DNA of 64,000 bases from Yuukianura sp. NJ FZ-2021 (GCA_046563655.1 CM102286.1:1178001-1242000), one strand, 5' to 3'. Counted from the first letter of the stretch, positions 21,900 to 64,000 are shown. The notes: generated from the sequence alone by a model not told the origin. Numbers and translations are program-made.

Positions 21900-21948
21900 T
21901 TGGTTCAAATTCCAAATTTGGTTCAAATTCCTAAATTTGGTTCAAATT
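21898..21948. repeat. Three tandem copies of ATTTGGTTCAAATT(CC) at the start of receptor copy 3
   Basis: Directly visible, period 18-19 bp. Confidence 0.75.
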
Positions 21949-30489: not shown

Positions 30490-31489
30490 TTCTTCCAAAT
30501 TCCGGCAATTGTTTTCGCGAACCGCGGTTGTCAAATGACTTAGTTTTTCCTGTTAGAAGTAGAAAATTTTGTTTATTTCAAAGTGTAAGCTGGAGTTGAC
30601 TCCGCCTTTCCATTTTATATAATACCTCTTTACATACAAGTTTTAAAAAATTTACTGTTATTTGAGTGCAAATGTTTTAGAAACTTTGGAAATGGAAATT
30701 TGAAATGCATATGGAAATTTTTCGATTTTTATTGACTAATACATTTACATAGCGCATTTAAGCAAAGGAAAGACGGCCGCCTAATTTTTTTCGGTGCACA
30801 TCTTTACGAGGTCATCAAAATTTGTCAATTTTCAAAAAAAAAATGGACTCGTTAGTCCATATTCCAAAGAATTTTTTTCTAAATTTAAAAAAAAAATGAC
30901 TGCAACATAATAGTACCTGAGGTTTCCAGCAGAAAATTTTCATCCCAAATTATTTGGTGCTTAGATTAGCTTTTGAACTTCTTTTTAATTTCGATGTTTT
31001 TTTTTGTCTACTTTTTTCTTGCAATGTTTTGTTGCCAGCAGTCTTCGCGGGTTAGGTTGTCAACTGACGTTATTTTTGGTTTAAATTTTCTGCTGCACCT
31101 AGAAGTACTTTTTCTTTATCAATGTAAGTGAAAATTGGTTCCGCCTTTCCATTGTATATAAAACCGAAGTGTGGGGGTTCTTACATGTAAGATTATGCAC
31201 TTGGAATTGAAAATTTGCAGACGTTTTTGCAATTTCTTTTATCAGATCGCAAATGCTTCCAAATTTTTAATTTTCAAAATCAAATCATTTACTAATTTAT
31301 CAGATCGCAATTTTGTGAATTAAGACTTTTGTATCTTTACAGAAGTATTCTTTTTCTTCTTGATGTTTCAATGACTCAATGTCAAAGTTTTCATCATACC
31401 AATTTTATTTATAAATTTTTGGATGCATAAATATTGAAAACTACGTCACTTAACCCTTTTAACTTTTAGTAAAGAAGTTAAACTCGAAC

Positions 31490-37063: not shown

Positions 37064-37305
37064 TCTGAAAATTTTACACGTTTTTAAGAATTTTAGAAAA
37101 AAAGTGGAAGACTTGCTTTGTTATGTCAATCACAATGTCACGAATGTTCGTATTTTGTTGAAAAAAATTAGAACGGGGTCTGTCGTATTATAAAACTTTT
37201 ATGTCATACATCAAAAGTCTCAAAATTGTGAGTTCAAAAACTCCAATGAATTAGCCATTTTTTTTTTCAAAAATTTTTCTTTATGAAAATTTTAAAGAAA
37301 AAATG

Positions 37306-39448: not shown

Positions 39449-39662
39449 TTTGGAAAACTGAATAGTACTCAAAATGAAAAGTAAAGTGAGCCATTTCTTG
39501 AGTTTTTGCTTACGCAAATCACCCTTTATTGAGAGTATTTTTTTAACAATGGAACAATACTAGCGTGCGTAAGATTTATTGTTAGACTAAAAAAAAAACA
39601 AGTTAATTTTATTTAATGTAACAATAAAAAGCTATTTATAACTGCTTTTTGTTTTTTGGAAA

Positions 39663-41540
39663 CTAAATTTTTGAAACTTTCCGCGGAAGCTCGACGCTTA
39701 AATCTGCAAGGACGTAGGCAGAGGCTGCCCAGACAGCGGTGCACAGGTCTAATTCGGCACTATTTTCTACCGTCATGGTGTCACCTTCTGAATGATGAAA
39801 GTAAAAGTACTTGGAGTTGGCATTGTTCAAACTTAGGCCAGGCACTCCTTGTTGTATGAAAAATCCAATGTCAGATCCAACTTCTGGATCTGCTCTGAAC
39901 ATCGTGGCATTGATTGGTTCAAATAATTTTAAAACTTCTTGAATTATACAGCCAGCTTCAAAAGTTCCTGAAAAATCTAAACCAAGTGGACGGAAAGTGC
40001 CAATGTCTGACTCAAAAACGGCTTTGAAGTGGTCCATTTCATGCATATGCTTTTTGACGTAGTCTTGAACACCAATCAACCCCATTTCTTCTGATGTCCA
40101 CAAAATGGCGCGAAGTGTGCGTCGTGGCGTTAAATTCAAAAATCGGAGTAACGCCAACGCCTCAACTGAAATAAAAGCTCCGCCTCCATCGTCCATTGCT
40201 CCATCTCCGACGTCCCACCTAAAATTTCACATAAACCAGCGAAAAAAACTACTTAGCGAAACTTTTTAACACTTTTAACATATAACTTAATGTTTTAACA
40301 GTTTAACATGCAAGATATTTTAACATTTTAACACTTACGAATCGATGTGGCCAGAAACAACGACGACATCTTGCGGTAAAGTTTTTCCTTTGATTTCTCC
40401 AATGGCATTTCGTGACGTCACTGGCGGCAGATTTTTGGCTTCCATTTTTAACAAAATTTCAATTTTCCATCCTAAAAGGAATTTCAAAAAGTAAACTCGT
40501 AGTTTTTTTTTATAAGTTTTTGAAAAATTTGTTTAAACTTGCCGCGTTTTTGAAATCGATGAAGCATTTGAGCATCTTCGACGGTTATACATGCAGATGG
40601 AATTTGTGTAACGTTGTCCTCGTAGTCTAACATTCCCGTGTGTGGACTGTTAATAGAAAACGGTGTTACGGAACGCACGAGAGCTGCGAGGCCGCCGAGT
40701 TTTGCCACTTCTGAAGCTCCAGCACCGCGATACTTAACACTGGAGCCATAAGTCTTATATTTTTCGTTAAAAACGACAATTTTCCCGCGTACCTAAAATT
40801 TTAAACAGAAATCTGAATTCCACAAATTCAAAAATTTTGTACTTTTTAACAACTTACCTCGTGTGCTCGTAATTGCAATTCCGTAAAATTTCTAACTACA
40901 ATAACTTCTGCTCGAATTCCTTCTGGAGGCGTTCCAACGGAGTATCCAAGTCCAAGCAGCGCCAATTTTTTTCGTCTTGGCAAAATCATTTCAGCACTTT
41001 CGGAGCCTCTGTTAAAACAATTTTTTTAAAAATTTGTACAAAAAATAGTTTTTTTTTAATTTACATTATTATTTTTTTTACTAACCTGACCCAGTGTGGA
41101 ATTGTTACATTTTCTCCATGAACATTTTCCAAACCATCTCGTTCCATTTTTCTTAACATGAAATCAATCGAATTTTCCAAATTTTGAGTTCCCGCTTGTC
41201 GACTGCCAAATTGATCCACAAAATAAGCAAGGTCATTATACGTTTTTCCACGAAACGCTCCACTAACTGCTGCTTGTATTATTCGATTTGTGATGTTTTG
41301 GTATGAAGCAATTTCTCGTTTCAGACTACTCGAAACTGAGCAACTTTGACGTGAGATGAATTCAGTTGGTTTTTGAAATTTCAAAGCTTCAAATTCCTCT
41401 TTACCCAAAATTTGATTTGTTTCAATTTCACGTTGGGCTAAAACCTCCTCATCGAAGTTCTTTTGCACTTTAGAATTCAAGCAGTTTGAAAATTCAAGAA
41501 CTATGAACAACAAAACACAAGTAAAAGTTAAGAAATTCAT
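39663..41540 (-). CDS. CPQ: Carboxypeptidase Q (M28) paralog 3
   Basis: Signal peptide [20 protein letters not shown], then [49 protein letters not shown] and [11 protein letters not shown]. Confidence 0.9.
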
Positions 41541-42301
41541 CTTTTTGTTTCAAAATTTATGAATCAGAAATTCAACTAATAGTAGAAATTTGGTTTGATT
41601 ATAACCGGGAGACGTTATGGACAAAAAGCATAAAGAGTAACTAATTTGTATAAGTTTGAAGCCACTTTGTGTTCTACGGAGCGGATGGACTTAAGTTTTT
41701 TGTTTGTTCTGCTATCATTTCTAACAAAAGTTTATTTATAAACATTTTTTTTTACTTTGAACTCAAAAGAAGTTAATCTTTGACAAGTTGAAAAAGAACA
41801 ATGAAAACATAAAGCAAACAACGATAAATGGCATGTAGAATGAAGAAAAGATTGAAACATTTCATTTCTGGGCTAAGCATCCACATAAACTGCCAAATCA
41901 ATTGTTCAAATTGTTGTTATTAAATAGTTTTGTGAGGCCACTTTATTATTATAAGTTAGTTACACGTAGTAATTTACATAATTAAACATTTTGAATACTC
42001 TTCAATAATAATTTACCCTCAAAGTACCGAGTTTATCTCCGAATCGGAATTCAATATGTTCATATAAAGTAGAACGTATTATTTAAGATGTATGTTAGGT
42101 TAAAATTACAACTTATGTTCCAGGAACTCCAAAAACCAAGAACATTCAATTTAAAACCTGTTTCATCTTTTACCGAGTTTCAATGGTTGAACATTTGCAT
42201 GAAGCAGAAAACTCGTAGCTTTGCTGTTTGTTGTTCCTCACGACTTTCAATTTATTGTTCAAACCAATTTATTCCAAATTTTACACAATTCAGAAAAATT
42301 T

Positions 42302-42852
42302 TTATTTTTGCAGAGACTGGATCCATGCCGTCATCTCCTGAATGTCAACCTAAATAAAAAAAAAAATTTTTTTTTCGAAAATGTTTCAGCCTGAAGTTAG
42401 GAAAAAATCAAAATTACGTCTCCAGAGCGATCCGTGTCTGTCTCGCACACAAAGTCTTCGAAAGTTTTTCCCTTCATTTTCGGATACTGCGTTGAAATCA
42501 GTTCAAAAATGCTCTCAAATTCTTCTTTGCTAATAATCCCATCTTCGTTTGTATCAGCCATTTTTGCATACCATTGAGCCTCAAGCTCAGGCAAATGTAA
42601 AAGGCGCAGAATCTGATCCAGGTAGGCCATTTTAAGGCGTCCTTCATCGAACCTCAGATAGAAGTTTGTGTACGCTTGCAATTGGGTTTCCGTACGTTTG
42701 TATCCCAATGCCTGCAGTATGTTCCGATTTTCAACCTGCGTGTCGACACTGTCCGTTTCTGGATCGTAGGATCCAAAAGTACGAAATTTTGCAACTATTT
42801 TAGCTATTTCTTCTTCCGTGTATGGAACAGACATATCACGATCCGATTCCAT
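42302..42852 (-). CDS. Small EF-hand calcium-binding protein (calmodulin-like fold, degenerate N-lobe)
   Basis: Exons 42852-42418 and 42349-42302. EF loops are DTNEDGIISKEE and, across the splice junction, DTDRSGDVDIQE. Confidence 0.8.
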
Positions 42853-43075
42853 TTTTTTTCTTCAAAATTTAAAGCTTGCAGTTAAGAGTCTCAACCGTTT
42901 CGCTTGAAAATATATGCGTGACTGATGGTCCGGAAAAAAATTTCACTTCCAATTACATGGGTTTTAGATTGCATTCCCACTAACGACTGGCTTGTGTTTT
43001 TAATTGATTTATCAAAATTAATTTAAAGACAAAAAAATTAAAGACATTAAAGAACCGCAGTCACGGCAGCACGCC

Positions 43076-45071: not shown

Positions 45072-47064
45072 TTAAGACACAGTGTTATTTTTAGTTGGTA
45101 GAACAATTGGAAGTGAAAGTTGCGTTACAAAAAAGTTGGTTGGATCCCATTTCCGTTTTTGTTCAACCAATTTGTTCAAATTTTGTCCATAATTTCGAAT
45201 GAGATGATCTTTGACGTCCAAATCTGGATAATTTTGGTACGTTTCTCCTCCGTCCATGAATTGCACAGTGTCCCAAAGTTCATAGAGGAAGTTCATGCCT
45301 TGGTGGACTTGCGCAGGGTCAGAAGAGCCTTCGTAGTGAATCGTGATGTCCAGAAGTGAGTCTCTGTGGACATAGGACATGTCTGTCTTCTGGAAGTCAT
45401 GGATCGCACCCTGCTCAGAGTTGCACAGAATCCAAATGTTGTTTTGGGGAATTCTCTCCAGAACGGCAGCAACTGCGTCCATTTGAGCCCTTGTGAAGTA
45501 CTTTTTAATGAAGAAGGATTTGGCCTTGAAGTAGCGTGGAGCTGCAAGGTCTTTGCGCATGCTCTTCAAATAGGTCAGAAATAAATCGCCGTTTAACAAA
45601 TCAATCATTTGCGTTCCAAGATTTTTGGACGGGACTTCTTCCGTTTTTGGAGAAATTATTGGGGCGTAACTGTTCATGACAACGAACTGAATGTAAGAGG
45701 GAGAAGATTGAACAATTTTGAACGGTTTTGGAAAAGTTTGAAAAAGAACTTTCAAAAATTCGGTACTGTTTTTGGGTTGAACTTTTGAATCTTGAATATG
45801 AACAGCAGCAAATTCAATTCCAGAAGAAATCGGAGGAAGCAACGAGTTGTAATTGTCTGCAAAAAAAAAAAAAACTTAAAGTAACTCAAAATTTCAAACT
45901 ATATTGATACTCGATTTTTTTTTTAAATTGTGAATTTTTTGTTGTTTTGTTGTTGTTGTTTTTTTGTTTTGGTTTCTTACCACTTGTAATAGTAAATCCA
46001 AGAAAAATTGTGGGTTCATTGACCCTGATCCATTTGAGCATATTTTGAAAAGCGATGTAAGACGTGCCAAAATCTTTCAGTTTATAACGCAGTTTCACAA
46101 AAGTCATTTTCATTTTGCTGGCTTCAAACAATTTGATCTTGAATCTTGTCACAATTCCAATGTATCCCGGACCATGTCCACGCAAAGCCCAAAACAAATC
46201 CGAATTCTCCCGCTCATTTGCCACCACAATTTGACCACGCCCATCAACCATTTCAAATTCAATGACATTGTCAACTGCCAAGCCATACACATGTGAAAAG
46301 TATCCAACTGCCCCGCCAATAATGTGGCCGCCGATTCCCACCGTCAGACAATTGCCCATTGGAATTGCATAGCCACCATTTTCCCAAAAGTAAGCATGTA
46401 CTGGCCCCACCAAAGCTCCCGGCTCCACCAGCCCCACCGCGTTGGCCCCACTTCCTTCCACACTCATTTTCTGCATGTTCCTGAAGTCCACCACGAGAGT
46501 GTGGTTGGTGCCCCACCCAATGCTTTCGTAAGAGTGACCACCACTGTTCGGCACAACGTGAATCCTCGTCTGCAGTCCACATTTGACGGCAGTCGCCACG
46601 TCATGCGCAGACGTCGGCAGCAAATAAGCCACTGGGTAAACTTTTTGTATGCGCAGATTCCATTGAAGATTGAGGTGATTGTAGTAGTCGGAAGTGAGGT
46701 CACGAAGTACGAACTTTTCTGAATTGAATTCATGTATTTGTAAACATCTTCTGTAAGCTTCGATTTTGTCATTCTGCCCCGGAAAAGCGGCGACTTTTGT
46801 CCGCTGCGTCGAAAAGTTCTGAATTTTTTGAAAGAGACTTGACTGCGTTGAACAAAAATTTGATTCGTTTCTGAGTTTGTAAATTTCGAAATTTGCGATG
46901 CAGGTATTTAACCGGTGAGTTTGAATATATCCAAACTTGAAACTTGACAGAACTGAAATTCAAAATTTTGAAAATATTTTAAACTAGGAATTGAAAACGA
47001 CAAACCGTTTGACAAAATACGAGTAGTACTTACTAGTAAAAAGAAAGATGCAAAAAATATTCAT
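45072..47064 (-). CDS. Secreted BBE-like FAD-linked oxidase, copy A (no vitellogenin domain)
   Basis: Exons 47064-47034, 46952-45981 and 45856-45072. Signal peptide; FAD_binding_4 motifs NSGGHSYE, GNCLTVGIGGH and SDLFWALRG; BBE C-terminal motif YQNYPDLD...YGQNLNKLVEQKRKWDPTNFF. Confidence 0.88.
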
Positions 47065-48005
47065 TGTGTGGAAATTAAAAGTTTAAAAAAATGGAAATGT
47101 TATAAAAACTTTCTTGTCAAACTGAAATTAAAAATTTTTGATAAAAAAAAATTGTCTTGTTCAACTGTTAAATGACTTCTGATTTTAAAATTTCAAAATT
47201 GACTTTCCAGTTGGAACTAAAGATTTTGAATACACAGAATTAAGAGTGATGCTGTTGCGATTGAGTCATTTTTAGGCTTGACGAGTCTAGAAGAGATTGC
47301 TAGTTAGCGTGAATTTACGAAAGTTGATAAAACGAGATTATTTTGACACTTTGTGTAAAAAGTACAACAAAAAATAATAAGCTGCTAAATATACATACCA
47401 AAATCAAATTTTTTGGGACAATAAGCCGAAAAAATGAAGCATGCTGCAGTCAAAAAAAAAACAACATTCATAAATTGAACAAACAGAAAACGTTTATGCA
47501 AACGTCGCAAGTTGTTGACCTTCATTTTTTTCTGGATTGAACTTTCAATGAACTTTGACAATTCTTAGAAAAAATTTCAAAATAACTTGTGCCATGCGTC
47601 AATTATGGTTAACAGGGTCGCATTAGGTCACGGCAAGCATGACAATCTTCCAAGAAAACATGCCGCTTTACACTGAAACTACAGTGACAATACAAAACTG
47701 ACATAATCAGCAGCATAGTCTAGTTTACCAAAGATTATGTCAAAAAGTTCCAGGAAAAATGTTTCTCTTTGTCCATAATACTAAAAAAAATATCAAATTG
47801 AAATGATTTTTTTTAATTACATCGAATTTTGTCTTTGTTTAATTTACAAATGAAATTATGTATCAGCATACAACTGTCCAAATTTAGAAATTCTAAAGAA
47901 AATCACTTAAATTTTAATTGTTGTTGAAATCAAAACTACATTTTGCATTTATATAGTTCAAAAATCATTCAAATGTTGCACCATTTTACAGAACTTTGAC
48001 AAATT

Positions 48006-51000
48006 CTAGTACTCAACAGTGCTGTTAATTCTTCTCCTCGGTGGAACAATTCTTGGAAGTGAAAGTGGCGTGACAAAAAAGTTGGTTGGATCCCACTTCT
48101 GTTTTTGCAGTTGCAAACGGATCAAATTTTGGCCATAATTTCGAATGAGATGATCTTTGACGTCCAAATCGGGATAATTTTGGTACGTTTCTCCTCCGTC
48201 CATGAATTGCACAGTGTCCCAAAGTTCATAGAGGAAGTTCATGCCTTGGTGGACTTGCGCAGGGTCAGAAGAGCCTTCGTAGTGAATCGTGATGTCCAGA
48301 AGTGAGTCTCTGTGGACATAGGACATGTCTGTTTTCTGGAAATCATGGATTGCACCCTGCTCAGAGTTGCACAGAATCCAAATGTTGTTTTGGGGAATTC
48401 TCTCCAGAACGGTAGCTACTGCGTCCATTTGAGCCCTTGTGAAGTACTTTTTAATGAAGAAGGACTTGGCCTTGAAGTAGCGTGGAGCTGCAAGGTCTTT
48501 GTGCATGCTGTTTAGAAAAGCAATGATTTCCTGGTCGGCTGGAAGATCCATGAACCTTGTTGTGTGACTGTTGAAGTAGAGGTCAGCATCGGTCAACTTG
48601 CCAACGGTCATGAGCTGACCAGTCTTTGCATGTGGAATGACAATGGGTGCATAGCCGGTCATGACCACAAATTGAATGTAGTTGGGAAAAGATTGAATAA
48701 TTTCGGCCGGTTGTGGAAATTTTTCGAGCAGAACGCGAACAAATTCTGAGTAGTTTTTTGGTTGGACGTTTGGATCTTGAATGTGGACAGCAGAAAATTC
48801 AATTCCAGGAGAAACAGGAGGATACGTAGAGTTGTAAGTGTCTAAAGAACAATTTTAAGTTTGAAAATTTTGAAATTTTTGAAATAAAATAAAATTTCTT
48901 GAAAGTTTTTTTTGAAAATTTCTTTGAAATTCATACCGCTTGCCATCATAAATCCGATGAACGCTGTAGGCTCATTGGCCTTTATCCACTCCATCATATT
49001 TTGAAAGCCGATAAAAGCCGGCGCGAATTGTTTGACTTGATAGCGCAGTCGCACAAGCGTTATATTGATTTTGCTGGCTTCAAATAGCTTGACCTTGAAA
49101 CTAGTCACGATTCCGATGTACCCTGGACCATGACCACGCAGAGCCCAAAACAAATCCGAATTCTCCCGCTCATTTGCCACCACAATTTGGCCACGCCCAT
49201 CAACCATCTCAAATTCCACGACATTGTCAACTGCCAAGCCATACTGTGTCGAAAAGTATCCCACGCCACCACCAATTGCATGTCCACCCATGCCCACCGT
49301 CAGGCAATTGCCCATTGGCATGGCATAGCCACCGTTTTCCCAAAAGTAAGCATTCACTGGCCCCACCAAAGCTCCTGGTTCGAGTCGCCCCACCGCATTG
49401 GCCCCACTTCCTTCAATGCTGATGTTCCTCATGTTCCTGAAGTCGACCACTAGCGTTTCGTTGGTGCCCCACCCAATGCCTTCATAAGAGTGACCACCAC
49501 TGTTTGGTACCAAATGAATGTTGGTCTCCAGACCGCATTTGACGGCACTCGAAACATCCTGCGCAGAAGTCGGCAAGAAATAAGCAAGTGGGTAAACTTT
49601 TTGTTTGCGCAGATTCCATTGAAGGTTGAGGTGGTTGTAGTAGTCGGAGTTGAGGTCACGGCTAACGAATTTGTTTGTCTTGATCCCGTTGCTTTCTATG
49701 CATTTTCTGTACCGATTAATTCTATCTCCGTTTGTCTAAAAACAGTTATGTTTTTAAACCGACCTTTTGAAAAAAATTTTCATTCATTTTTAAAACTTTG
49801 TAAAAGAAAATATTTTGCCTTGTTCCTTCTCCAAAACGCTGCTTGCTCTGGTGCAATTTCATCTTCAAAGTATGAAGCAAGATTGAATTCAGCTTGAAGA
49901 TTGTTAAATGTAAAATCAGAAATTTGTATGGACGAAGCGGGAAAAGTTTGAAATTGGCTCCTTTCGAATGGATCAATTCCAACAAGTACTGCTTTCTGAG
50001 CTACTGTGGTGTCACGTGAGCGAAAATTTGTGGAAACTTCCAAGTAAATGACAAATTTTCGTTCTGGTCCACAAGTAACAAACTGCGTAGTGAAAATTCC
50101 CTTTGAAAAAAAAAGTTAACAATTCCAAAAAAAAATTACAGTAAAATTCAAAAAAGTGTAAATTTTTAGTTACTGTTTGATTCAATGATCGTCCTTGTTT
50201 TTGACAGTATCGAAGGTCATTTGATTTTCGGAATTCAAACATTTTGGAATTCGCACCACAGAATGCCCGTAGTTCATTCAAATGTGTTTCATCCTAAAAT
50301 TACAATTTGAAAATAGTAAAATCTCAAAACAAATTCTGGTTTTCAAGAAATATGAAATCCAAATTTTGAAAAATTTTACTTTTTCCTCAGAACTCCACTG
50401 TCCAGGTTCAGTTCCAGAGTTTTGATTTTCCAAATCCTCATCTGAGTTTGTGTCTTCCGAACTGAGGTCATCCGATGACCTTTGACCTGCTGAACTTTGA
50501 CTCAAACTACCTTCCTCTACAGTGTACTTGGCCTCACATTGACCAAAACTCGACTTTTCCTGGACAGAGTACTGAATTTGAGTGGCGCCATCTACGTTTG
50601 TACTGATTCTGCGTGAAGTACTTCCAGTATTGAGAATGAACATAGAAACTAGAGATTTTTTGATGTTGAGTGCCCAATCAGGATGCTGGAATTGCAATTT
50701 CATTGAAATTGGTTGTGCAGAGGAGTCAACCGTCACTTCACCCGGAGCTTCAAAGTACTTCCGAATTTCTTCGGGAGGCAAAATTTCAGCCAGCGGCTCT
50801 TTTTGAAAAACTCGCAACTTTTCACACTGAAAGTTTAAGTTTCAAATTGTTAATGTGGATTTACAATGTAAGGTATATAGGGGTCAAAGGTCATTGACCT
50901 CGGAAGGTGACTGACCTGAAAGCGGATCTTGTTGGTTCCAACAGGTGCTGACTTTAGTTCGTATTGTATTGAGTAGTTATCTAATGCATCGCTGGGAAGC

Positions 51001-51203
51001 GTCCATGCTGGAGACGCGAATGCAGTTGAGTGAATGTCGTACGTGTAAGTTTTTCCTGGTCGAAAACCGTGAAGTTGACCATTTCCAGGGGTCAAAGTTA
51101 ACGAAACTGAAAATCAAAATTTGGCAATGTCAATCTTTTGAAAAAGTTATACTTTTTGAAAATAAATCTTACATATCAAAACGAGGACGCTGGAGATCCT
51201 CAT
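48006..51203 (-). CDS. Vitellogenin_N-like domain fused to BBE-like FAD oxidase, copy B
   Basis: 31-nt signal exon 51203-51173. LLTP-like exons read GFRPGKTYTYDI, PDWALNIKKSLVS, YSVQEKSSFGQCEAKY and FRKSNDLRYC. The FAD exon (about 49735-48938) has NSGGHSYE and GNCLTVG, followed by the BBE exon (about 48841-48006). The junction into the oxidase probably needs a GC donor near 49818. Confidence 0.75.
50888..50900. promoter_or_regulatory. Perfect IR1 palindrome AGGTCA-T-TGACCT overlapping a DR1 (GGGTCA-A-AGGTCA) in intron 2 of copy B
   Basis: Exact EcR/USP-type consensus inside the 89-nt intron 50827-50915. Function is inferred only. Confidence 0.5.
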
Positions 51204-51862
51204 GTTGATGTTGGTATTGATGCCAAGCTAGAGTGTAACTGATTGACTTGTAGAAAATTTTATTTCAGCAAAACCGTTCAAAAATTTAAATTGAAATTTC
51301 ATTTTGTAAAGGACGAGCTATTTATAACCTTTGCTAATCCAGAAATTGCACCAACACAACATTTTCAGCTTGGCTAATCAAATTAATGAATTAATTACTC
51401 AAGTTAGCTTAGCTAATGAAATTATGTTTATTCATTTCATCATTTTTGCATAACAGTAACAAAAATTTATCTCCTGCATAAAGTCAATACTAAAAGTTGA
51501 AGTTCCAAAGCTCAGGATTGAAACTTTTGCAGCCTCATAAAGCAGAGTTGACAGTTTTTTTTGTTTGCAAAATTTTCGTTTTTTGCATAAAGGCAAAATC
51601 CAAAATCTTGCCTCATGCTTCCTACGACTGCAGAAAAACTGCAATACAAAAAAATTCTACTTGAATAAGCTCAAGATAATGTTCAAAAGTAAAATACAAC
51701 GGCTTAAACTTACAACTTTTTTCAATCCAAAAATATAAAGATAAAACTTACTGGTAATAAGAAAAAAGTTCAGCACAAATTATCTAAGTATAGTTTATGA
51801 ATAATTCCAAAATTTTAACAAAAATTAAAAATCTTAAAAAAAGAACAAAATCTTAGAAATTA

Positions 51863-54800
51863 TTAACCGCTACTCTGCGTGGAATTGACAGGAAGTGACA
51901 ATTGAGTGACAAAATAGTTGGTTGGATCCCATTTCGTCTTTTGTTGAATCAATCTGTTCAAATTTTCACCATAATATCGAACATGATTATCCTGGATATC
52001 CAAATCAGGATAATTTTGATACGATTGACCTCCGTCCATGAATTGAATAGTGTCCCACAGTTCATACAAATATTTCATTCCTTCTTCAACTTGCGCAGGA
52101 TCAGAAGAACCTTCGTAGTGAATCACAAGTTCCAAAAGTACATCGCGATGAACATAAGCTGTTTCGTTTTTTCGCAAATTTTGAATTGCTCCAAGTTCAG
52201 TGTTGCAAAAAAGCCAAATATTTCTGTTTGGGATTCTCTGCAGAACTTGAGCAACTCGTTGCAGTTCGGCCGCTGTGAAAAATCTTTTGATAAAAAATGC
52301 TTTTGCTTTGAAGTAACGCAGAGCAGCGTTTTCTTTGCGCAGACTCTTCATGAACGCAATTCTTTTAGCGTCTGGTTGCGGAATGCCGTTGCGAATTCTC
52401 AAAATGTCGTCACCGGGAGATAAAATATTGGTTTGATTTTGATTTGGATTTGGCGGTTTGACGGTAATTGGGTAATATCCGGTCGAATCTACAAAGTGAA
52501 TGTAACTTGGAAAAGTAGTAAAGGAACGAAGTGGTGGTGGGAATATTTCAGACAAAATTTTCAAAAATGTTGAGCTTCCTTTCGGTTGAACATTTGGATC
52601 TTGAATGTGCACAAAAATGAAATTGATGCCACCAAGAGCTGGAGGGAGCGTTGACAAGTGGCGTTCTTTTAAAACAAAAAATTTCATCAATGTATAAAAT
52701 TTTTAAATTCAAAGTTTGAAAAACTTACCGCTGGCAATGTAGAAGTTCATAAAAACGGGTTCGTTCACTTTACTCCATCGTATCATTTTTTGAAAAGCAA
52801 CGTACGTTGGAACAAAATCTTTGACGGCATAACCTAGTCGAACGAACGTAATTTTCATCTTGCTGGCTTCAAACAATTTGATTTTAAATCTTGTCACGAT
52901 TCCGATGTACCCTGGACCACTACCACGCAAAGCCCAAAACAAATCCGAATTCTCCCGCTCATTTGCCACCACAATTTGGCCACGCCCATCAACCATTTCA
53001 AATTCAATGACATTGTCAATTGCCAAGCCATAAACTGAGGAGAAGAATCCCAACCCACCTCCAATCGCATGGCCACCCATTCCCACCGTCAGACAATTTC
53101 CAACTGAAACACCGTAGCCACCATTTTCCCAAAAGTAAGCAAAAACATGCCCCAGCAAAGCTCCCGGCTCCACCAGCCCCACCGCATTGGCCCCACTTCC
53201 TTCCACACTCATTTTCTGCATGTTCCTGAAGTCCACCACGAGAGTGTGGTTGGTGCCCCACCCAATGCTTTCGTAAGAGTGACCACCACTGTTCGGCACA
53301 ACGTGAATCCTGGTCTGCAGTCCACATTTGACGGCAGTCGCCACGTCCTGCGCAGACGTCGGCAGGAAATAAGCCACTGGGTAAACTTTCTGTTTGCGCA
53401 GATTCCATTGGACGTTGAGGCGATTGTAGCGGTTGGAATTGGAGTCACGTGGAACGAATTTACTGCGCATGACTCCGTTTCTCTCCAAACAGGTTTGGTA
53501 CCTTCTCAGTCGACTAGTTTCCTGAAATGAAAACATTTAATTTCTTGGCTAACTTTGCTATTCCAAAGTTAAATGAGCTTTTCTTCCGTTTTTTTTACAG
53601 TTGTTGCATTATTGGTTGGATTTCTGGAGTTCGGTTTTGCATTTGCGGAATTTCCAAAATGTAGTCCATGTCGTGCTGGTTTGTAAGTAAAATCGGTTAG
53701 TTCTTGCACAGGCGCTGGAATTCCATGATACTGCAGTGCTTTAGTGTAGCTGATGTCCACTAACAGCATACTCTCCACATCATGCTGTGATCCGTTACGA
53801 ATCATCTTGTGCGAAATTTCAAGAAGGCTAACGTTTTTCGGATGTTGTCCACAAGCCATGATTTGCATTTCAGAGACACCCTGTTTAAAAAAATGGATTT
53901 TGGCAAATTTTCTATAAAAAATGCCTTTTTGTTCTGTAAAAAGCAGCTTACAGTTCGACGTGTTTTTGGGCTCACATTTCCAAAATTTGTTTGGCAGTGA
54001 TGTAAGTCAGTCGTTTTTCGAAATCCGTACAACTTCGTACCAGTTTCGCAAAAACGCGACAACTCCTGAAAATGTTCGTTTTCCTAAAAAATGTTGACAT
54101 GCCGACAAACAGATAGGGAAAAAATATAAAGTAGCGAATTACTTCCGCTACTTATGAATTGCTTTTTGTCTTACTGGATTTCGATTCGGTTTCACTTCAT
54201 GTTCGTAAGAATTCCAACGCGTTGGAATTCCGTTTTTGAACTCTTGTGCGACTTGTTGACTTATCCAATCAAAATCGTTCTGAACCGGAGCATGAACGGG
54301 ATCTTTGAGCCATGCTTCGTAGTTCCATGAGTCCAGGAAATCTTCATCTTGAGGTAGACCATGACGCTTGAATGGCCAAGTATTGTCGACATACACTGTA
54401 TTCTGTTGAGATTCAGCTGGTAAAACTTCTTGCATGTCATAGGTCACCGGACACTGCCCAAGTATTGACCTCTCCTGGACAGAGTATTGCTGTGAAGTAG
54501 GATGTGCTTGAGTGATGCTGTTCATACTTTGTGAAGCAGTGTTTGAATTTCCCAAGAAAGTGAACCTAGAAACTTGTGTTTTCTTTAAATTCAAAGCCCA
54601 TTCGGGTAAGTTTGCTTGAACTTTCATAGAAACCGGTTGACCCAAACCATCCATCGTCACCTCCATCGGAGATTCAAGAAAACTTCGGATTCTGTCCGAC
54701 ATTTTCAACTCTCGATTCGCTCCATTCCGTTTTTCATACTTGAATATCCGAAAGTCTTGAGGCTAAAAATAAAAAACAGTTTTCTATCAAAATTTTCAAA

Positions 54801-55173
54801 GTTCATAAAATTACAAAGTATTCAAACTTTTAGTGTAAAAAGTCAAATGTCACTGACTTGTATGAGCAGCATGTTCTTCCCAACAGCGGTGACTTTCAGA
54901 AAGTACTGCGCAGAAGCTGTTTCTTCAAAGTTGTCACTCGGAAATCCAGGCGGCGACATAAAAGAATTGATGTCGCCATGTACTGCATAAGTGTACATCC
55001 GACCAAGGGCAAAGTAATTCGTCTGTGCTCCGACGTACTGGAAACTAAATACATCTGAAAAGCCAAGTTCAAAATAATTCTTAAAAACTTCTAAATGATA
55101 GAGAATTTTAGAATTTTTGGCAAATGAAAAGATGGAACTTGCAAGTAAAACAGAACACGATGACCGCCCTCAT
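51863..55173 (-). CDS. Vitellogenin_N-like domain fused to BBE-like FAD oxidase, copy C
   Basis: Signal exon 55173-55143 (GC donor). Then FALGRMYTYAVHG, PEWALNLKKTQVS, YSVQERSILGQCPVTY and FRKTTDLHHC. A phase-0 intron joins ...NNATT to ETSRLRRYQTC; NSGGHSYE, GNCLTVG and YQNYPDLD...KWDPTNYF follow. Confidence 0.82.
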
Positions 55174-55756
55174 TTTTCTAGAAAAAAAAATCACCAGAAA
55201 TTACAACTTTACATTTGGAACACTTTTTGATTCGAAGTGAAATTGGCAAGTGATTTTGGTATAAGGAGGTTGAGCACCTAACTTTTCCTTTCTGCGAGTT
55301 GATGCATAGTTTTCAACAAATTGAAACGTTTCACCTACAGTGAATAATACGCCAATCCAAAAAATTACAAAACGAAACTGCTTAACTAGCCAACAAAAAG
55401 GCTGAATGTTTTGTTTGTGCGCAACAAAAAGAAGAAAGTGAAGAGAATAGCAATTAACATCATGAAAAGTCAATCAGCGAATCAAAAAATAACATGAAAC
55501 GGATACGCATCAAAATATACTTCAACAGAGAAATTCTTCCTACCTTTAGCTAATTTTTGGCAATGGTAAAATCAGATGGCATTTTTTGTACTTCATGTTT
55601 TTGAAAACCTAACAACTGCTGAAAAAAAGTAAAATAGTTTACAGCTATACATATATATTTGGATCGTCACGAAACTTTTTAATATTAAACCAAAAGTTCA
55701 AATTGCTTATAAAATATCACAAACCAATCAGTATTAACACAAAATTCCAAAAATTT

Positions 55757-58700
55757 TCAAAATTGGTAGCCGTTACTCCTCGTGACAGGAAGTGACAATT
55801 GAGTGACAAAATAGTTGGTTGGATCCCATTTCGTTTTTTGTTGAATCAATCTGTTCAAATTTTCACCGTAATATCGAACATGATTATCCGGGATATCCAA
55901 ATCAGGATAATTTTGATACGATTGTCCTCCGTCCATGAATTGAATAGTATCCCACAGTTCATACAGATATTTCATTCCTTCTTCAACTTGCTCAGGATCA
56001 GAAGAACCTTCGTAGTGAATAGTAAAATCCAAAAGTACATCGCGATGAACATAAGCTGTTTCGTTGTTTTTAAACTTTTGAATTGCTGCAAGTTCAGTGT
56101 TGCACAAAATCCAAATATTTCTGTTTGGAATTCTCTGCAGAACTCGAGCAACTCGTTCCAGTTCAGACGCTGTGAAAAATCTTCTGATAAAAAATCCCTT
56201 CCCTTTGAAGTATCGCAGAGCAGCATTTTCTTTGGTCACACTCTTCATAAATGCAATTCTTTCGACGTCGGGTTGTGGATTTCTGAAGCGAGTTCTTAAA
56301 ATGTCGTCTTCTGGAGAGAAATCACTGGTTTGATTTTGATTGGGATTTGGCGGTTGGACGGTAATTGGGGAATATCCGGTGTAATCTGCCATTTGAATGA
56401 GATTTGGAAAAATAGTTATGGAACGAGCTGGTGGCGGGAAAGTTTCAAAAAGGACTTTCAAAAACGTTGAGTTTCCTCTCGGTTGAACTTTCGGATCTTG
56501 AATGTGATGAAAGCCGTAGGTAAAACCTGCACCGATTGTAGGGAGAGTTGAGACGTAGCCATCTTCAAAATCCAAATTAAAACAAAGTTAAGGTTAGTCC
56601 AATATTGGCAAACTGAAATTGGAAATTATTTACTTTCTTCAAAAATTTTCAATCTCTGATCAAAAACATACCGCCAGCGAGGGAGAAGCTCATAATAACG
56701 GGTTCATTGACCTTAGTCCATTGAATCATCTTTTGTAAAGCGAGATACGTTGGAACAAAATCTTTGACGGGGTAACTTAGTCGCACAAACGTCAGTTTAA
56801 TGTTTTTGGCATCGAACAATTTGAATTTGAATCTCGTCACGATTCCGATGTACCCAGGACCATGACCACGCAGAGCCCAAAACAAATCCGAATTCTCCCG
56901 CTCATTTGCCACCACAATTTGGCCACGCCCATCAACCATTTCAAATTCAATGACATTGTCCACTGCTAAGCCGTACAGTGATGAGAAGTATCCCACACCA
57001 CCACCAATTGCATGCCCACCCATTGCCACTGTCATACAATTTCCAACTGGTATGCCATAGCCACCATTTTCCCAAAAGTAAGCAAAAACATGCGCCAGCA
57101 AAGCTCCTGGCTCCACCAGCCCCACCGCATTGGCCCCACTTCCTTCCACACTCATGTTCTGCATGTTCCTGAAGTCCACCACGAGAGTGTGGTTGGTGCC
57201 CCACCCAATGCTTTCGTAAGAGTGACCACCACTGTTCGGCACAACGTGAATCCTGGTCTGCAGTCCACATTTGACGGCAGTCGCCACGTCATGCGCAGAC
57301 GTCGGCAGGAAATAAGCCACTGGGTAAACTTTCTGTTTGCGCAGATTCCATTGGACGTTGAGGCGATTGTAGCGGTTGGAATTGGAGTCACGTGGAACGA
57401 ATTTACTGCGCATGACTCCGTTTCTCTCCAAACAGGTTTGATACCATTTGAGTCGACTAGTTTCCTGTAATGAACACATGAAATTCTTGCTCAACTTTGC
57501 TATTTCAAACTTATATGACACTTTTTTCCGTCTTATTTTTACCGTTGTTGCAGTATTAGTTGGATTTCTGAAGTTCGGATTTTCGGAATTTCCAAAATGC
57601 AGTCCATCTCGTGCTGGTTTGTAAGTAAAATCGGTTACCTCTTGCCATGGCGCTGGAAATCCGTGATACTGCATTGCCATTGCATAGCTGATGTCGACTA
57701 ACAGCATATTCTCCACATCATGCTGCGATCCGTCACGAATCATCTTATGCGAAATTTCAAGAAGGCTGACATTGTTTGGATGTTGACTGCAAGCCATTAT
57801 TTCCATTTCTGCTACAGCCTTTGTAAGAAAAAACAGTGAATTTTGGAAACTTTTCAAATGAAATGCCTATTTGTTTTGAGTACAACAAAGGATTTACAGC
57901 TCGAGGTTCTTCCGAGTTCACATTTTCAAAATTTGTTTGACAGTGTTGTAGCTCAGTCGTCTTTCGAAATTTGTACAATTTGGCTTCACTTTCGCAGAAA
58001 CGATATAACTCACGAACATGTTCAGTTTCCTGAAAAGAAAAAGTGTTCAGAAAGTTTCAAGTAATAATTCTTTTTAAAGTCTTTACTGTATTGCGGATTG
58101 AGTTCACTTTGACTTCATTTCCAAAAGAATTCCAATGCGTTGAAATTCCGTTTGTGAATTCCTGCGAAACTTGTTGACTTATCCAATCAAAATCGTTCTC
58201 AACCGGATTGTGCCCAGGATCTTCTTTGGGCCATGCGTCGTAGTTCCAGGAGTCATCATCATGTTGAGGCATACCACTGCGTTTAAATCGCAAAGTGTGG
58301 TCGACATACACTGGATTATGTTGAGATTCAGTTGGAAATACAATGTGTTGCATGTCATAGGTCACCGGACACTGCCCAAGTATTGACCTCTCCTGGACAG
58401 AGTATTGCTGTGAAGTAGGATGTGCTGGAGTGATGCTGTTCACACTTTGTGAAGCAGTGTTTGAATTTCCCAAGAAAGTGAACCTAGAAACTTGTGTTTT
58501 CTTTAAATTCAAAGCCCATTCGGGCAAGTTTGCTTGAACTTTCATAGAAACCGGTTGACCCCAACCATCCATCGTCACCTCCATCGGAGATTCAAGAAAA
58601 CTTCGGATTCTGTCCGACATTTTCAACTCTCGATTCGCTCCATTCCGTTTTTCATACTCGAATATCCGAAAGTCTTGAGGCTAAGAATAAAAAAAATAGT

Positions 58701-59090
58701 TTTCTATCAAAATTTTCAAAGTTCATAAAATTACAAAATATTCAAACTTTTTGTGTAAAAAGTCAAATGTCACTGACTTGTATGAGCAACATGTTTTTCC
58801 CAACAGCGGTGACTTTCAGAAAGTACTGCGCAGATGCCGTTTCTTCCAAGTTGTCGCTAAGAAATCCAGGCGGCGACATGAAAGAATTGACGTCGCCATG
58901 TACTGCATAAGTGTACATCCGACCAAGGGCAAAGGAATTAGTTTGTGCTTCAGCGACATTGAAGCTGCGCGCGTCTGAAATAACAAATTCAAAATTATTC
59001 TTACGGAATAGTTTAGATTTGTTGAACTTTTTGAAAATACAAAAAAATATGCAACTTGCAAATGAAACAGAACACGATGAACTCCCGCAT
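55757..59090 (-). CDS. Vitellogenin_N-like domain fused to BBE-like FAD oxidase, copy D
   Basis: Same exon plan as copy C. ORF 56649-57857 reads open from the last LLTP-side exon straight into the FAD domain. Motifs NSGGHSYE, GNCMTVA and YQNYPDLD. Confidence 0.82.
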
Positions 59091-59989
59091 TCTCGAATAG
59101 AGTAAAACAAAACTCTGCACAAACATCAACTTTTATTTGTAAAACTCTTGAATGCGACGCGAAGTGAAAATAGGAACTGATTTTGGTTCGGGGATTCTGC
59201 ACACCAACTTATCCTTACTTAGTTTTCAATTTGAAACCTAGCCAATGTGCCTTTCGGTTTCACCTTACAGTGAAAAATTTAACACATTTTGGCAATTAAA
59301 AAATACAAATCGAAAGCTTGTACTAATTACCAAAAAAAATGTTTATTTTTATGTTCATGTAACGAAAGGAACAAAGTGAAAAGAATAGAAATTAACTTAA
59401 GGAAAAGCGAATAAGTAAATCAAAAAAATAACACAAAACGGATACACATCCAAAAATTTCTTTAAAATTGGATTACGTACTACACAAATATTAGGCAAAA
59501 TCTAACCTTTGAATCATATGTGAAACGAATCGCATCGTCTTCGAAGTCCTCAAGCGTGCAAACTACGTTAACAGAGAGATTTTTCCCACTTTTTAGTTTT
59601 TTGGTAAAATCATTTTTGTAGTTATTAATTTTGTAATTTGGAAGTACTAAAAAAATCATAATGAATGCCTGTGTGTTGTTACGCTTATAGATCAGAGGTC
59701 AGTAACCCCAATCCGTTGAAATTGAAAAAATACGCAGAACTACATCTGAAAATTGAGATTTTCATTTCATTTTTTTTTTACTAAATTTCATGTTTTTGAA
59801 AAACAAAGACATAAGTAAAATAGTTTAAAGATGTACTTATTTTTGATTGTTAACAATTTTTGTTATGCTTAGGAGGGATTTTGACTTAACCTAAAATTGT
59901 AATCTTAATCCTAATTCTAAATCTATAAATCTAAAAAACCAAAATTCTAAACTAATCCTAACATAAAATTGTAAACTTTAAATTCTAAA

Positions 59990-62900
59990 CTATCCGTTAC
60001 TTCGCGTGGAATTGACAGGCAATGAAAGTTGAGTGACAAAATAGTTGGTTGGATCCCATTTCGTTTTTTGTTGAATCAATCTGTTCAAATTTTCACCGTA
60101 ATATCGAACATGATTATCCGAGATATCCAAATCAGGACTATTTTGATACGATTGACCTCCGTCCATGAATTGAATAGTGTCCCACAGTTCATACAGATAT
60201 TTCATTCCTTCTTCAACTTGCTCAGGATCAGAAGAACCTTCGTAGTTAATCGTAATGACCCAAAGCGAGTCTCGGTGGACAAAAGCTGTTTCGTTTTTTC
60301 GAATTTTTTGAATTGCTCCAATTTCAGTGCCACACAAAATCCAAATATTTCTGTTTGGAATTTTCTGCAGAACTTGAGCAACTTGTTGCAGTTGAGCCAT
60401 TGTGAAAAATCTTTTGATAAAAAATGATTTTGCTTTGAAGTAGCGCAGAGCAGCATTTTCTTTGCGCAGACTCTTTAGAAATGCGATTCTCTCGGCGTCT
60501 GGTTGTGAACGAAAGGCGCGAGTTCTCAAAACGAGGTCAGCGGGTGACAAAATGCTGGTTTGATTTTGAAATGGATTTGGCGGTTTTACGGTAATTGGCG
60601 AATTGCCGGTCAAATCTACAAATTGAATGAAATTTGGAAAAGTAGTTGAGGAACTAACTGGTGGCGGGAAAGTTTCAAACAAGATTTTCAAAAATGTTGA
60701 GTTTCCTTTTGGTTGAATTTTGGGATCTTGAATGTGCACAAAGCCAAAGGTAATACCGCCCCCAACTTCAGGGTTAGGTGACACGAGTCCATCTTTAACA
60801 AAGAGTTTAACAATGGATTCAACGTTAGAAAATTTTGAAAATGTCATTTTGAAATTCAAATTTTGAAAAAGTGGAACTTACCGCCTGCGAGGAAAATGTT
60901 CACATAAATGGGTTCATTGACCTTGCTCCATCGAATCATATTTTGTAAAGCGAGATACGTTGGAACAAAATCTTTGACGGCATAACTCATTCTCACAAAA
61001 GTAATTTTCATTTTGGTGGCATCGAATAATTTGAATTTGAATTTCGTCACGATTCCGATATACCCTGGACCACTTCCACGCAGAGCCCAAAACAAATCCG
61101 AATTCTGCCGCTCATTTGCCACCACAATTTGGCCACGCCCATCCACCATCTCAAATTCAACGGCATTGTCAATTGCCAAGCCATAATGTGCTGAGAATAA
61201 TCCCACGCCACCACCAATTGCATGACCACCCATCCCTACCGTCAAACAACTCCCGAGTGGTATCCCATAGCCACCATTTTCCCAAAAGTAAGCAAAAATA
61301 GGCCCCAGCAAAGCTCCCGGCTCCACCAGCCCCACCGCATTGGCCCCACTTCCCTCTACACTCATTTTCTGCATGTTCCTGAAGTCCACCACGAGAGTGT
61401 GGTTGGTGCCCCACCCAATGCTTTCGTAAGAGTGACCACCACTGTTCGGCACAACGTGAATCCTGGTCTGCAGTCCACATTTGACGGCAGTCGCCACGTC
61501 ATGCGCAGACGTCGGCAGCAAATAAGCCACTGGGTAAACTTTCTGTTTGCGCAGATTCCATTGGACGTTGAGGCGATTGTAACGGTTGGAACTGGAGTCA
61601 CGTGGAACGAATTTACTGCGCATGACTCCGTTTCTATTCAAACAGGTTTGATACATTCTCAGTCGACTAGTTTCCTGAAATGAAAACAATTAAATTCTTG
61701 GTTAACTGTGGTATTTCAAAATTATATGAAACTTTTTTCTGTTTTTTTTACCGTAGTTGCATTATGAGTTGGATTTCCGTAGTTCGGTTTCGGATTTGTG
61801 TAATTTCCAAAATGTAGTCCATGTCTTGCCGGTTTGTAAGCAAAATCGGTTACTTGTTGCACTGGCCCAGGAATTCCGTGATACTGCATTGCTTTAGCGT
61901 AGCTGATGTCGACTAGCATCATACTGTCCACATCACGCTGTGATCCGTCACGAATCATCTTGTGCGAAACTTCAAGAAGGCTAACATTTTTAGCATGTTT
62001 GCCACAAGCCATTATTTGCATTTCCGCTACACCCTGTGTAAACCACAATGAATTTTGGCAAATTTTAAAATGAATTTAAAAAACTTACTACAACCTAAAA
62101 CACTTACAGTTCTTGGTGTTTTTGGTTCTAGATTTCCAAAATTTGTTTGACAGTGTTGTAGGTCAGTCGTTTTTCGAAATCCGTACAACTTCCACCCGGT
62201 TTCGCACAAACGCAGCAACTCCCAAAAATGTTCGGTTTCCTAAAAAAAGAAACTTGTTTTAAATGCCGACAGACTAGGGAAAATCATAATGCAGCAAACT
62301 ACTTTCGCTACTTAATAACTGCGTTTTATCTAACTGGGTGACGAGTCGGTTTCACTTCATTTTCATAAGGGCGCCAACTTGTCGGAATTCCATTTTTGAA
62401 CTCCTGCGCAACCTGTTGACTTATCCAGTCGAAATCGTGCTCAACCGGAGTGTGACCAGGATCTTTGAGCCAAGCGTCGTAGTTCCAGGACTCCAGGAAA
62501 TCATCATGTTGAGCCATACCACTGCGTTTGAATCGCAAAGTGTGGTCGACATACACTGGATTATGTTGAGATTCAGTTGGAAATACAATGTGTTGCATGT
62601 CATAGGTCACCGGACACTGCCCAAGTATTGACCTCTCCTGGACAGAGTATTGCTGTGAAGTAGGATGTGCTTGAGTGATGCTGTTGGCACTTTCTGAAGC
62701 AGTGTTTGAATTTCCCAAGAAAGTGAACCTAGAAACTTGTGTTTTCTTTAAATTCAAAGCCCATTCGGGTAAGTTTGCTTGAACTTTCATAGAAACCGGT
62801 TGACCCAAACCATCCATCGTCACCTCCATCGGAGATTCAAGAAAACTTCGGATTCTGTCCGACATTTTCAACTCTCGATTCGCTCCATTCCGTTTTTGAT

Positions 62901-63331
62901 ACTCGAATATCCGAAAGTCTTGAGGCTAAGAATAAAAAACAGTTTTCCATAATTTATTAGAAATTTAGAAAATACTAAACATTCAAGCTTTTTAGTTTAA
63001 AAAGTCAAATGTCACTGACTTGTATGAGCAGCATGTTCTTCCCAACTGCCGTGACTTTTAGAAAATACTGCGCAGACGCTGTTTCTTCAATGCTATCATT
63101 CGGGAATCCAGGCGGCGACATGAAAGAATTGACGTCGCCATGTACTGCATAAGTGTACATCCGACCAAGGGCAAAGGAATTAGTTTGTGCTTCAGCGACA
63201 TTGAAGCTGTGCGCGTCTGAAATAACAAATTCAAAATTATTCTTACGGAATAGTTTAGACTTCTTGAACTTTTTGAAAATACAAAAAATATGCAACTTGC
63301 AAATGAAACAGAACACGATGAACTCCCGCAT
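59990..63331 (-). CDS. Vitellogenin_N-like domain fused to BBE-like FAD oxidase, copy E
   Basis: Same exon plan, with signal exon 63331-63301. Motifs NSGGHSYE, GSCLTVG and YQNSPDLD...KWDPTNYF. Confidence 0.82.
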
Positions 63332-64000
63332 TCTCGAATAGAGTAGAACAAAAATCAGCACAAACATCAACTTTTTATTTGTAAAACTCTTGAATGCGAA
63401 GCGAAGTGAAAATAGGAACTGATTTTGGTTCGGGGATTCTGCACACCAACTTATCCTTACTTAGTTTTCAATTTGAAACCTAGCCAAAATGTTCCTTTCG
63501 GTTTCACCTTACAGTGAAAAATTTAACACATTTGGCAATTAAAAAATACAAATCGAAAGCTTGTACTAATTACCAGAAAAAATGTTTATTTTTATGTTCA
63601 TGTAACGAAAGGAACAAAGTGAAAAGAATAGAAATTAACTTACGGAAAAGTCCATCAGTAAATCAAAAAATAACACAAAACTGATATCCATCCAAAAATT
63701 TCTTTAAAATTGGATTACGTACTACACAAATATTAGGCAAAATCTAACCCATGAATCATATGTGAAACGAATCGTATCATCTTCAAAGTGCTCAAGCGTG
63801 CAAACTACGTTAAGAGAGAGATTTTTCACACTTTTTAGTTTTTTGGTAAAATCATTTTTGTAGTTATTAATTTTGTAATTTGGAAGTACACAAAAAATCA
63901 TAATGAATGCCTGTGTGTTGTTACGCTTATAGATCAGAGGTCAGTAACCCCAATCCGTTGAAATTGAAAAAAAAAATACGCAGAACTACATCTGAAGATT
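62560..64000. repeat. Recent tandem segmental duplication: near-identical to about 58300-59750, including intergenic DNA
   Basis: The upstream non-coding sequence of copy E (63331-64000) closely matches that of copy D (59090-59750). The repeat unit is about 4.2 kb. Confidence 0.85.

Follow-up and report, generated by a model that had tools for sequence, protein, structure and literature searches.

Can part of a yolk protein and a complete flavoprotein oxidase be encoded as one polypeptide? This question is raised by a tandem gene array in Yuukianura sp. NJ FZ-2021 (GCA_046563655.1, CM102286.1:1178001-1242000), contained in a stretch of 64,000 nucleotides that we call the window. Five minus-strand copies of an oxidase gene, A to E, stand in tandem in the final 19 kb of the window, with distances of 2.9, 3.8, 3.9 and 4.2 kb from one start to the next in a repeat search. 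A first-pass annotation, made from the sequence alone, had proposed that four of these copies, B-E at 48006..63331, are fusions of a vitellogenin-type beta-barrel with a flavin oxidase resembling berberine bridge enzyme (BBE), and an intact seven-exon frame was recovered in all four. As the best explanation of the observations described below, B-E are each likely to be one gene for a secreted barrel and oxidase protein. The arrangement of a signal peptide, the beta-barrel of a large lipid transfer protein (LLTP) and a complete BBE-like oxidase in one frame is probably a new domain architecture, as judged from the sequence searches.

Exon models of B-E were built from a four-way DNA alignment by projecting the splice sites of copy D onto B, C and E. 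The four units lie 3.8-4.2 kb apart on the minus strand, from the stop codon of B at 48006 to the ATG of E at 63331, and each has seven exons, introns of 57-109 nt and a single terminal stop. In every copy, a 31-nt signal-peptide exon is followed by four barrel exons (exons 2-5) and two oxidase exons (exons 6 and 7). Copy B (48006..51203) comprises exons 51203-51173, 51106-50916, 50826-50380, 50293-50174, 50100-49819, 49735-48937 and 48841-48006, with barrel exons 2-5 covering 49819..51106 and oxidase exons 48006..49735, and has a predicted product of 901 aa. Copy C (51863..55173; 941 aa) is made up of exons 55173-55143, 55054-54858, 54762-54175, 54083-53952, 53880-53599, 53521-52729 and 52665-51863, and copy D (55757..59090; 942 aa) of exons 59090-59060, 58974-58778, 58680-58087, 58029-57898, 57818-57543, 57464-56672 and 56562-55757. 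Copy E (59990..63331), also with a predicted product of 942 aa, has exons 63331-63301, 63216-63020, 62925-62335, 62239-62108, 62033-61752, 61674-60882 and 60792-59990. All splice sites are GT-AG save the exon-1 donor of C-E and the exon-5 donor of B, which are GC; the former stands in a GCAAGT context, and an alternative GT 4 nt downstream, used together with a second AG, would also keep the frame. Each of the four genes would encode a secreted protein of two modules. Module 1, of about 390 aa, would consist of a signal peptide and the complete N-terminal beta-barrel of a vitellogenin-type LLTP, and a short Asn/Thr/Pro-rich linker would join it to module 2, a complete BBE-like flavoprotein oxidase of the vanillyl-alcohol oxidase (VAO) fold in which the His and Cys for bicovalent attachment of flavin adenine dinucleotide (FAD) are kept.

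What identifies the N-terminal part as a vitellogenin barrel? Exon 1 together with the start of exon 2 reads as a signal peptide, with 9-residue hydropathy maxima of 2.6-2.9 (for example MRAVIVFCFTYVFSFQYVGA, followed by QT). Exon 3 matched Pfam Vitellogenin_N (PF01347) in four of four copies at 30.6-35.3 bits against a cut-off of 24 bits (B 35.3, C 31.9 and E 32.1 bits), the match spanning profile positions about 68-156 of 590 and never extending past 156. When a profile of the four exon-3 sequences was compared with 1.84 billion representative proteins, 12 matches were obtained at E<=0.001. PF01347 is present in all 12, exceeding the cut-off in 11, and three also have an open beta-sheet domain, two of these with a von Willebrand factor type D (VWD) domain, that is, true vitellogenin architectures; an oxidase domain was present in none of the 12. 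Identity of exon 3 to arthropod vitellogenins is about 19-31%. We also scored the spliced B-E proteins with a local hidden Markov model (HMM) of the first 520 residues of five vitellogenins, which gave 67.2 bits for C, 66.4 for D, 60.1 for E and 35.4 for B. In C and D, the alignment to this model opened with the signal peptide and GK.Y.Y strand and extended through exon 4, and across the whole window the model matched the four exon-3 open reading frames (ORFs) only. Local hhalign comparison of the four spliced N-terminal parts with five vitellogenin N-termini returned a probability of 99.4% (E 6.8e-22) over 373 columns, aligning fusion positions 1-394 with vitellogenin positions 1-485 and including exon 5 and four conserved cysteines. 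The barrel hallmarks are present in colinear order (GK.Y.Y strand, W..N.KK, E...G.C...Y, K..D...C and ACG strand). Of the motifs on which the first-pass annotation had based its LLTP beta-barrel assignment, F..G..YTY, WALN[IL]KK..VS and YSVQE.S..GQC...Y were found as described, whereas RK..DL..C fails in copy D, which has EL; the assignment itself is upheld by the hhalign result and by the exon-3 profile matches.

The homology ends at a defined place. Position 485 of one of the compared vitellogenins (P0090) aligns with approximately residue 322-335 of the honey bee vitellogenin structure 9ENR, and in honey bee vitellogenin the beta-barrel is described as residues 21-323, followed by a polyserine linker (PMC8727950). 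As the end of homology maps to the end of the bee barrel, the module would be the complete barrel subdomain and nothing more. The alpha-helical subdomain, which forms the second half of PF01347, was not found in B-E, where oxidase residues follow the barrel directly. Likewise, neither the open beta-sheet domain (PF09172) nor the VWD domain (PF00094) was found in the scanned exons and ORFs of B-E; the vitellogenins P0090 and P0091 carry both. Because domains for the lipid cavity and the VWD domain are missing, B-E are not vitellogenins but bear a vitellogenin-derived module. Within exon 3, the variable loop that follows GQC...Y occupies the place of inserts rich in Ser, Gln or acidic residues in related vitellogenin fragments, and copy B retains an acidic Ser-rich stretch there. 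The same loop contains R-F-K-R in D (58279-58290, minus strand) and E (62524-62535, minus strand) and P-F-K-R in C, with neither in B; we assume that R-F-K-R could be a convertase-type cleavage site within the barrel loop. A sequence search of the PDB with the exon-3 profile gave no matches at E<=10, and the top scores of an ESM Atlas search with exon 3 of D were 0.76 and 0.75, under the lead level.

For the second module, the last two exons of copy D matched FAD_binding_4 (PF01565) at 72.5 bits (cut-off 26.4) and BBE (PF08031) at 50.2 bits (cut-off 20.6), so that the domain set expected in the first-pass annotation, a partial PF01347 with PF01565 and PF08031, was recovered; FAD_binding_4 and BBE were found in copy A as well. 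Exon 6 has 59 solved relatives at E<=1e-10, headed by PpBBE-like 1 (6EO4, 137 bits), 5K8E (119.5 bits; which we take to be xylooligosaccharide oxidase), glucooligosaccharide oxidase (1ZR6, 119.3 bits) and chitooligosaccharide oxidase (6Y0R, 114.1 bits), with alkaloid and cannabinoid enzymes ranking lower, at ~105 bits or less. NSGGHSYE and GNCMTVAMGGHAIGGG of the oxidase align with GGHSYE and GNCPTVGIAGHALGGG of PpBBE-like 1. The His of GGHS and the Cys of GNC.TV are invariant or nearly so in a 10-sequence alignment, and YQNY.D is aligned in the BBE part. Presumably this His and Cys hold FAD bicovalently and serve, with YQNY.D, in catalysis. The oligosaccharide oxidases at the top of the list thus share all three aligned elements with B-E at 114-137 bits; they are single-module plant or fungal proteins of ~480-500 aa, and at such distance their substrate preference is not transferable. 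By these matches, the nearest solved enzymes are oligosaccharide oxidases, not alkaloid-forming ones, and a role in chemical-defence biosynthesis, which the first-pass annotation had also considered, is no better supported than delivery to eggs or haemolymph.

In sequence databases, the closest relatives of the oxidase are exon-sized ORFs at 51-63% identity, followed by proteins of Folsomia candida (54%) and Pseudolycoriella hygida (45-51%). Fungal and bacterial relatives reach ~26-48% identity over shorter stretches, with E-values of about 1e-26 compared with 1e-63 for the arthropod and environmental set. These springtail, fungus gnat and environmental sequences make up a BBE-like clade (P0002-P0021, including P0006, P0010 and P0013, and metagenome loci L001-L003) that is separated by a large gap from fungal and bacterial relatives. 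Transferred terpene synthases are described in three arthropod groups, to two of which springtail and fungus gnat belong (PMC11665903). An old horizontal acquisition of the BBE-like oxidase clade is possible.

If B-E were functional genes, how would this appear in their coding frames? Exon-length differences among B, C, D and E are always multiples of three, and intron-length differences are not. In this order of copies, exon 2 measures 191/197/197/197 nt, exon 3 447/588/594/591, exon 4 120/132/132/132, exon 5 282/282/276/282, exon 6 799/793/793/793 and exon 7 836/803/806/803. Across 901-942 codons, none of the four copies has a frameshift or an internal stop. The ratio of nonsynonymous to synonymous divergence (dN/dS) among C, D and E is 0.31-0.33 in the barrel part (exons 1-5) and 0.34-0.48 in the oxidase part (exons 6 and 7). 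Copy B is more distant: its oxidase shares 63-65% aa identity with those of C-E at a dN/dS of 0.28-0.33, and its barrel part 32-33% identity with synonymous sites saturated. Despite this saturation, the barrel part of B has kept an open frame of 357 codons. Both halves are under purifying selection, with dN/dS of about 0.3-0.5.

We next consider the join itself. The junction intron, between exons 5 and 6, is 77-83 nt long, is in phase 0 on both sides and lies at the same place in four of four copies. It occupies 49736..49818 in B (83 nt, GC-AG, the GC being aligned with the GT of C-E), 53522..53598 in C (77 nt, GT-AG), 57465..57542 in D (78 nt, GT-AG) and 61675..61751 in E (77 nt, GT-AG), all on the minus strand and within a few bases of where the first-pass annotation had placed it. 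The open junction frame reported there for copy D from 56649 to 57857 was confirmed, running from stop to stop over 56649-57866, and a retained intron would still yield a fusion in this copy. Exon 6 opens a few residues ahead of the conserved Y..C with which the mature oxidase starts. As had been claimed, it lacks its own signal peptide: in frame, the first Met of this exon comes at residue 102 in B, 18 in C and D and 7 in E, and no signal peptide follows any of these. In B, the FAD domain starts near residue 47 of exon 6, so that the first Met falls inside it. A hydrophobic N-terminus stands shortly ahead of the same Y..C start in copy A and in the relatives P0005, P0006 and P0009, whereas exon 6 is without one. 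On the strength of these gene structures, the barrel and oxidase exons are probably spliced into one mRNA.

Several observations pull in the other direction, both on the join and on the nature of the barrel. If the junction intron were retained in B, C or E, translation would meet a stop 9-12 codons on, leaving a protein of the barrel alone; besides its in-frame stop, the intron of C contains one ATTAAA; and the donor at the B junction is the rare, non-canonical GC, with no in-frame GT alternative in the last ~29 codons read by eye. As to the barrel, PF01347 was found in none of the seven pieces when exons 2, 4 and 5 were compared singly with Pfam. Its homology in these exons comes from the spliced profile comparisons, whose alignments are thin, at four and five sequences. 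AlphaFold2 modelled exon 3 alone (17-row alignment) with a mean pLDDT (predicted local distance difference test score) of 49.2 and was confident only for residues about 20-70, so that the model was of too low quality for use. The stops, the ATTAAA and the GC donor, together with in-frame Mets no more than 18 residues from the start of exon 6 in C, D and E, would suit an arrangement in which each unit is two genes, a secreted barrel-only vitellogenin derivative (exons 1-5) and a separate oxidase (exons 6 and 7) with its own transcription or trans-splicing. We regard this as improbable, as the gap between the two parts has the size of an ordinary local intron, and there is no conserved oxidase start codon, copy B having none before residue 102 and yet a constrained oxidase. 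An oxidase begun at the exon-6 Mets would also be without the signal peptide seen in copy A and in dipteran and environmental relatives, and conservation of donor, acceptor and phase extends to B as well as C-E, although synonymous divergence between them is saturated. Should the join not be transcribed, the locus would amount to two adjacent types of gene in an ordinary tandem array. It is more improbable still that the array is debris, made of recent, unexpressed or decaying chimeras from unequal crossing-over that are nonfunctional as fusions. Tandem arrays with gene conversion can harbour such chimeras, and no relatives of the same architecture were found, but the uninterrupted frames, the exclusively frame-preserving exon indels and a dN/dS well under 1 in both halves all speak for maintained genes, as does an architecture kept between B and C-E through synonymous saturation of the barrel.

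Given one gene for a two-module protein, what might the barrel do for the oxidase? By analogy with its solved relatives, there is about an even chance that the enzyme oxidises C1 of a sugar or oligosaccharide, releasing H2O2. We tentatively suggest that the barrel could be an address or binding module for a yolk receptor from the LDLR (low-density lipoprotein receptor) family or for something else that vitellogenin binds, for instance a microbial surface, and would thereby place a peroxide-forming enzyme in eggs or haemolymph as defence. Egg provisioning by way of the yolk receptor is the most appealing form of this idea. In its most specific form, which we hold to be doubtful, the barrel would be a portable tag by which the oxidase is carried into oocytes along the yolk-receptor route, or to those surfaces of microbes or lipoproteins that are recognised by vitellogenin, so that the mother arms her eggs with an antimicrobial enzyme. 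Were this true, the divergence among the four paralogues would mirror an arms race for substrates or targets, and the array would be a natural experiment on the barrel acting alone. The first-pass annotation had treated the barrel as the receptor-binding region of vitellogenins, which is less firm than stated: for honey bee vitellogenin, one account holds that the receptor-binding site may lie outside the beta-barrel and not within it 'as previously believed', a further point against such an address, and it presents the barrel's own role as debated between receptor binding, pathogen binding and others (PMC8727950). The proteins may, alternatively, be fused with the barrel acting as a cleaved pro-domain, a secretion or folding helper or a dimerisation module, the free oxidase then acting like its unfused relatives, a possibility that we also rate as unlikely. 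In keeping with it, the fusion point corresponds to the boundary of barrel and polyserine linker at which bee vitellogenin is cut into 40- and 150-kDa fragments, the linker of B-E is short and polar, copy A and the relatives do without a barrel, and between B and C-E the barrel has diverged more quickly than the oxidase (aa identity 32% against 63-65%). Yet there is no dibasic convertase motif at the linker, the sole R-x-K-R being that in the exon-3 loop of D and E, and the barrel is intact in four paralogues at a dN/dS of about 0.32, which points to a function of its own. The cleaved pro-domain is as simple a model as the address, and nothing here separates the two. As a barrel-only chimera with an easy H2O2 read-out, a protein of this kind would permit a direct test of the barrel's role.

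Has such a protein been met elsewhere? Both modules come from well-known families, and the combination was found nowhere else in our sequence searches. A search for longer proteins with the junction ORF gave a sole match, a 950-aa fungal protein with 32% identity that has PF01565 only. None of the 80 matches in a search for near relatives covers more than 70% of the query, so none spans the barrel part. A metagenome scan yielded four loci, of which only L002 has upstream sequence (7 kb), with no barrel-like ORF in it; L001, L003 and L004 start at the match, and the best HMM match in the metagenome loci reached 6.3 bits (E 0.099). As eukaryotic genomes are represented in the databases mainly by exon-sized ORFs, the absence of fused relatives is weak evidence. 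Literature searches returned nothing relevant on a vitellogenin joined to a berberine bridge enzyme or oxidase or on such a domain fusion, and nothing relevant on Folsomia candida reticuline oxidase or a horizontally transferred arthropod berberine bridge enzyme. The statement in the first-pass annotation that no fusion with a BBE-like oxidase was known accordingly agrees with these searches, in which neither a fused relative nor a publication was found.

The closest parallel in principle is the vitellogenin of branchiopod crustaceans fused to superoxide dismutase (SOD). That precedent, cited in the first-pass annotation, is in print: 'VTG-SOD' of branchiopods is described in PMC5963186, which cites Kato et al. 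2004 and Chen et al. 2011. As in the SOD-fused vitellogenins of Daphnia and Artemia, an enzyme-type domain and vitellogenin sequence would stand in one secreted arthropod polypeptide in B-E. In branchiopod vitellogenins, the SOD domain is N-terminal. The branchiopod protein is a whole yolk protein of ~190-220 kDa with an added SOD-like domain, whereas B-E have the barrel only and the enzyme is the larger part; its SOD-type enzyme removes superoxide, whereas that of B-E is a BBE-like flavin oxidase predicted to form peroxide. B-E do not encode a full-length yolk protein with an added enzyme domain of the VTG-SOD type, and the likeness is one of principle, not of family. The locus would add a second, independent recruitment of an enzyme to arthropod yolk-protein sequence.

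For the barrel alone, the nearest counterpart is the 40-kDa N-terminal fragment of honey bee vitellogenin, which is the same subdomain with the same end boundary. In the bee, the barrel exists as a separate unit after cleavage into fragments of 40 and 150 kDa (PMC8727950). The bee fragment arises by proteolysis of full vitellogenin, whereas the barrel of B-E is encoded without the remainder and runs on into the enzyme. The oxidase, in turn, resembles unfused arthropod enzymes, namely the 'Reticuline oxidase' of Folsomia candida (P0010) and the 'Xylooligosaccharide oxidase' of Pseudolycoriella hygida (P0006 and P0013), which share 45-54% identity, the same clade and the same Y..C start. These unfused oxidases are 494-547 aa long and have no vitellogenin part; where their N-termini are complete, a signal peptide stands directly before the oxidase. 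In this locus, a BBE-like family that is sporadic in animals appears to have been amplified and remodelled within one lineage via exon-level fusion, tandem duplication and gene conversion.

An unfused paralogue also lies in the array itself, immediately outside the range given in the first-pass annotation. Copy A (45072..47064, minus strand) has a signal-peptide exon at 47064-47034 (31 nt, phase 1), of the same size and phase as in B-E, an 81-nt intron and an oxidase exon from 46952; the signal-peptide exon is spliced straight to a ~65-aa linker and the oxidase, with no barrel exons. That this linker is what remains of exon 5 was considered and rejected, as hhalign gave a probability of 0.14% (E 0.42). 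In a tree built on the FAD exon, the five copies form one group (support 100/97) with the topology (B,(A,(C,(D,E)))), with environmental sequences as nearest outgroups and the Folsomia protein within a wider clade (95/83). In a 1794-column DNA alignment of the oxidase, however, columns 200-300 of A show 99% identity with C, D and E against 83% with B, and C, D and E are 100% identical to each other over about 100 nt of the FAD exon, whereas columns 1300-1600 (~300 nt of the BBE exon) put A at 97-100% identity with B and 62-80% with C-E. From these identity patterns, we read the oxidase exons of A-E (45072-61674) as gene-conversion mosaics. Reading an order of events from the tree, either barrel loss in A or barrel gain in B-E once A had branched off, was therefore rejected, as gene conversion makes the copies mosaic and that order unreadable. 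The gene family would have arisen within this lineage, been amplified in tandem and been kept partly uniform by gene conversion.

Upstream of copy E, the sequence at 63665-63964 repeats the spacer between D and E (59423-59722) with 96% identity, so that the array may extend with a further copy past the end of the window. Elsewhere in the window, about seven two-exon genes for multi-pass membrane proteins form a minus-strand tandem array at ~16000-30600 (ORF pairs of ~290 and 150-190 aa). Two ORFs of this array were tested against Pfam and gave no match, and the proteins may be lineage-specific receptors. The minus strand also carries, at ~35500-41600, a tandem of three genes resembling carboxypeptidase Q (Peptidase_M28); the named proteins nearest to them are 49-58% identical and come variously from mites, ticks, insects, a crustacean and fishes. 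An EF-hand gene is present at 42397-42861.

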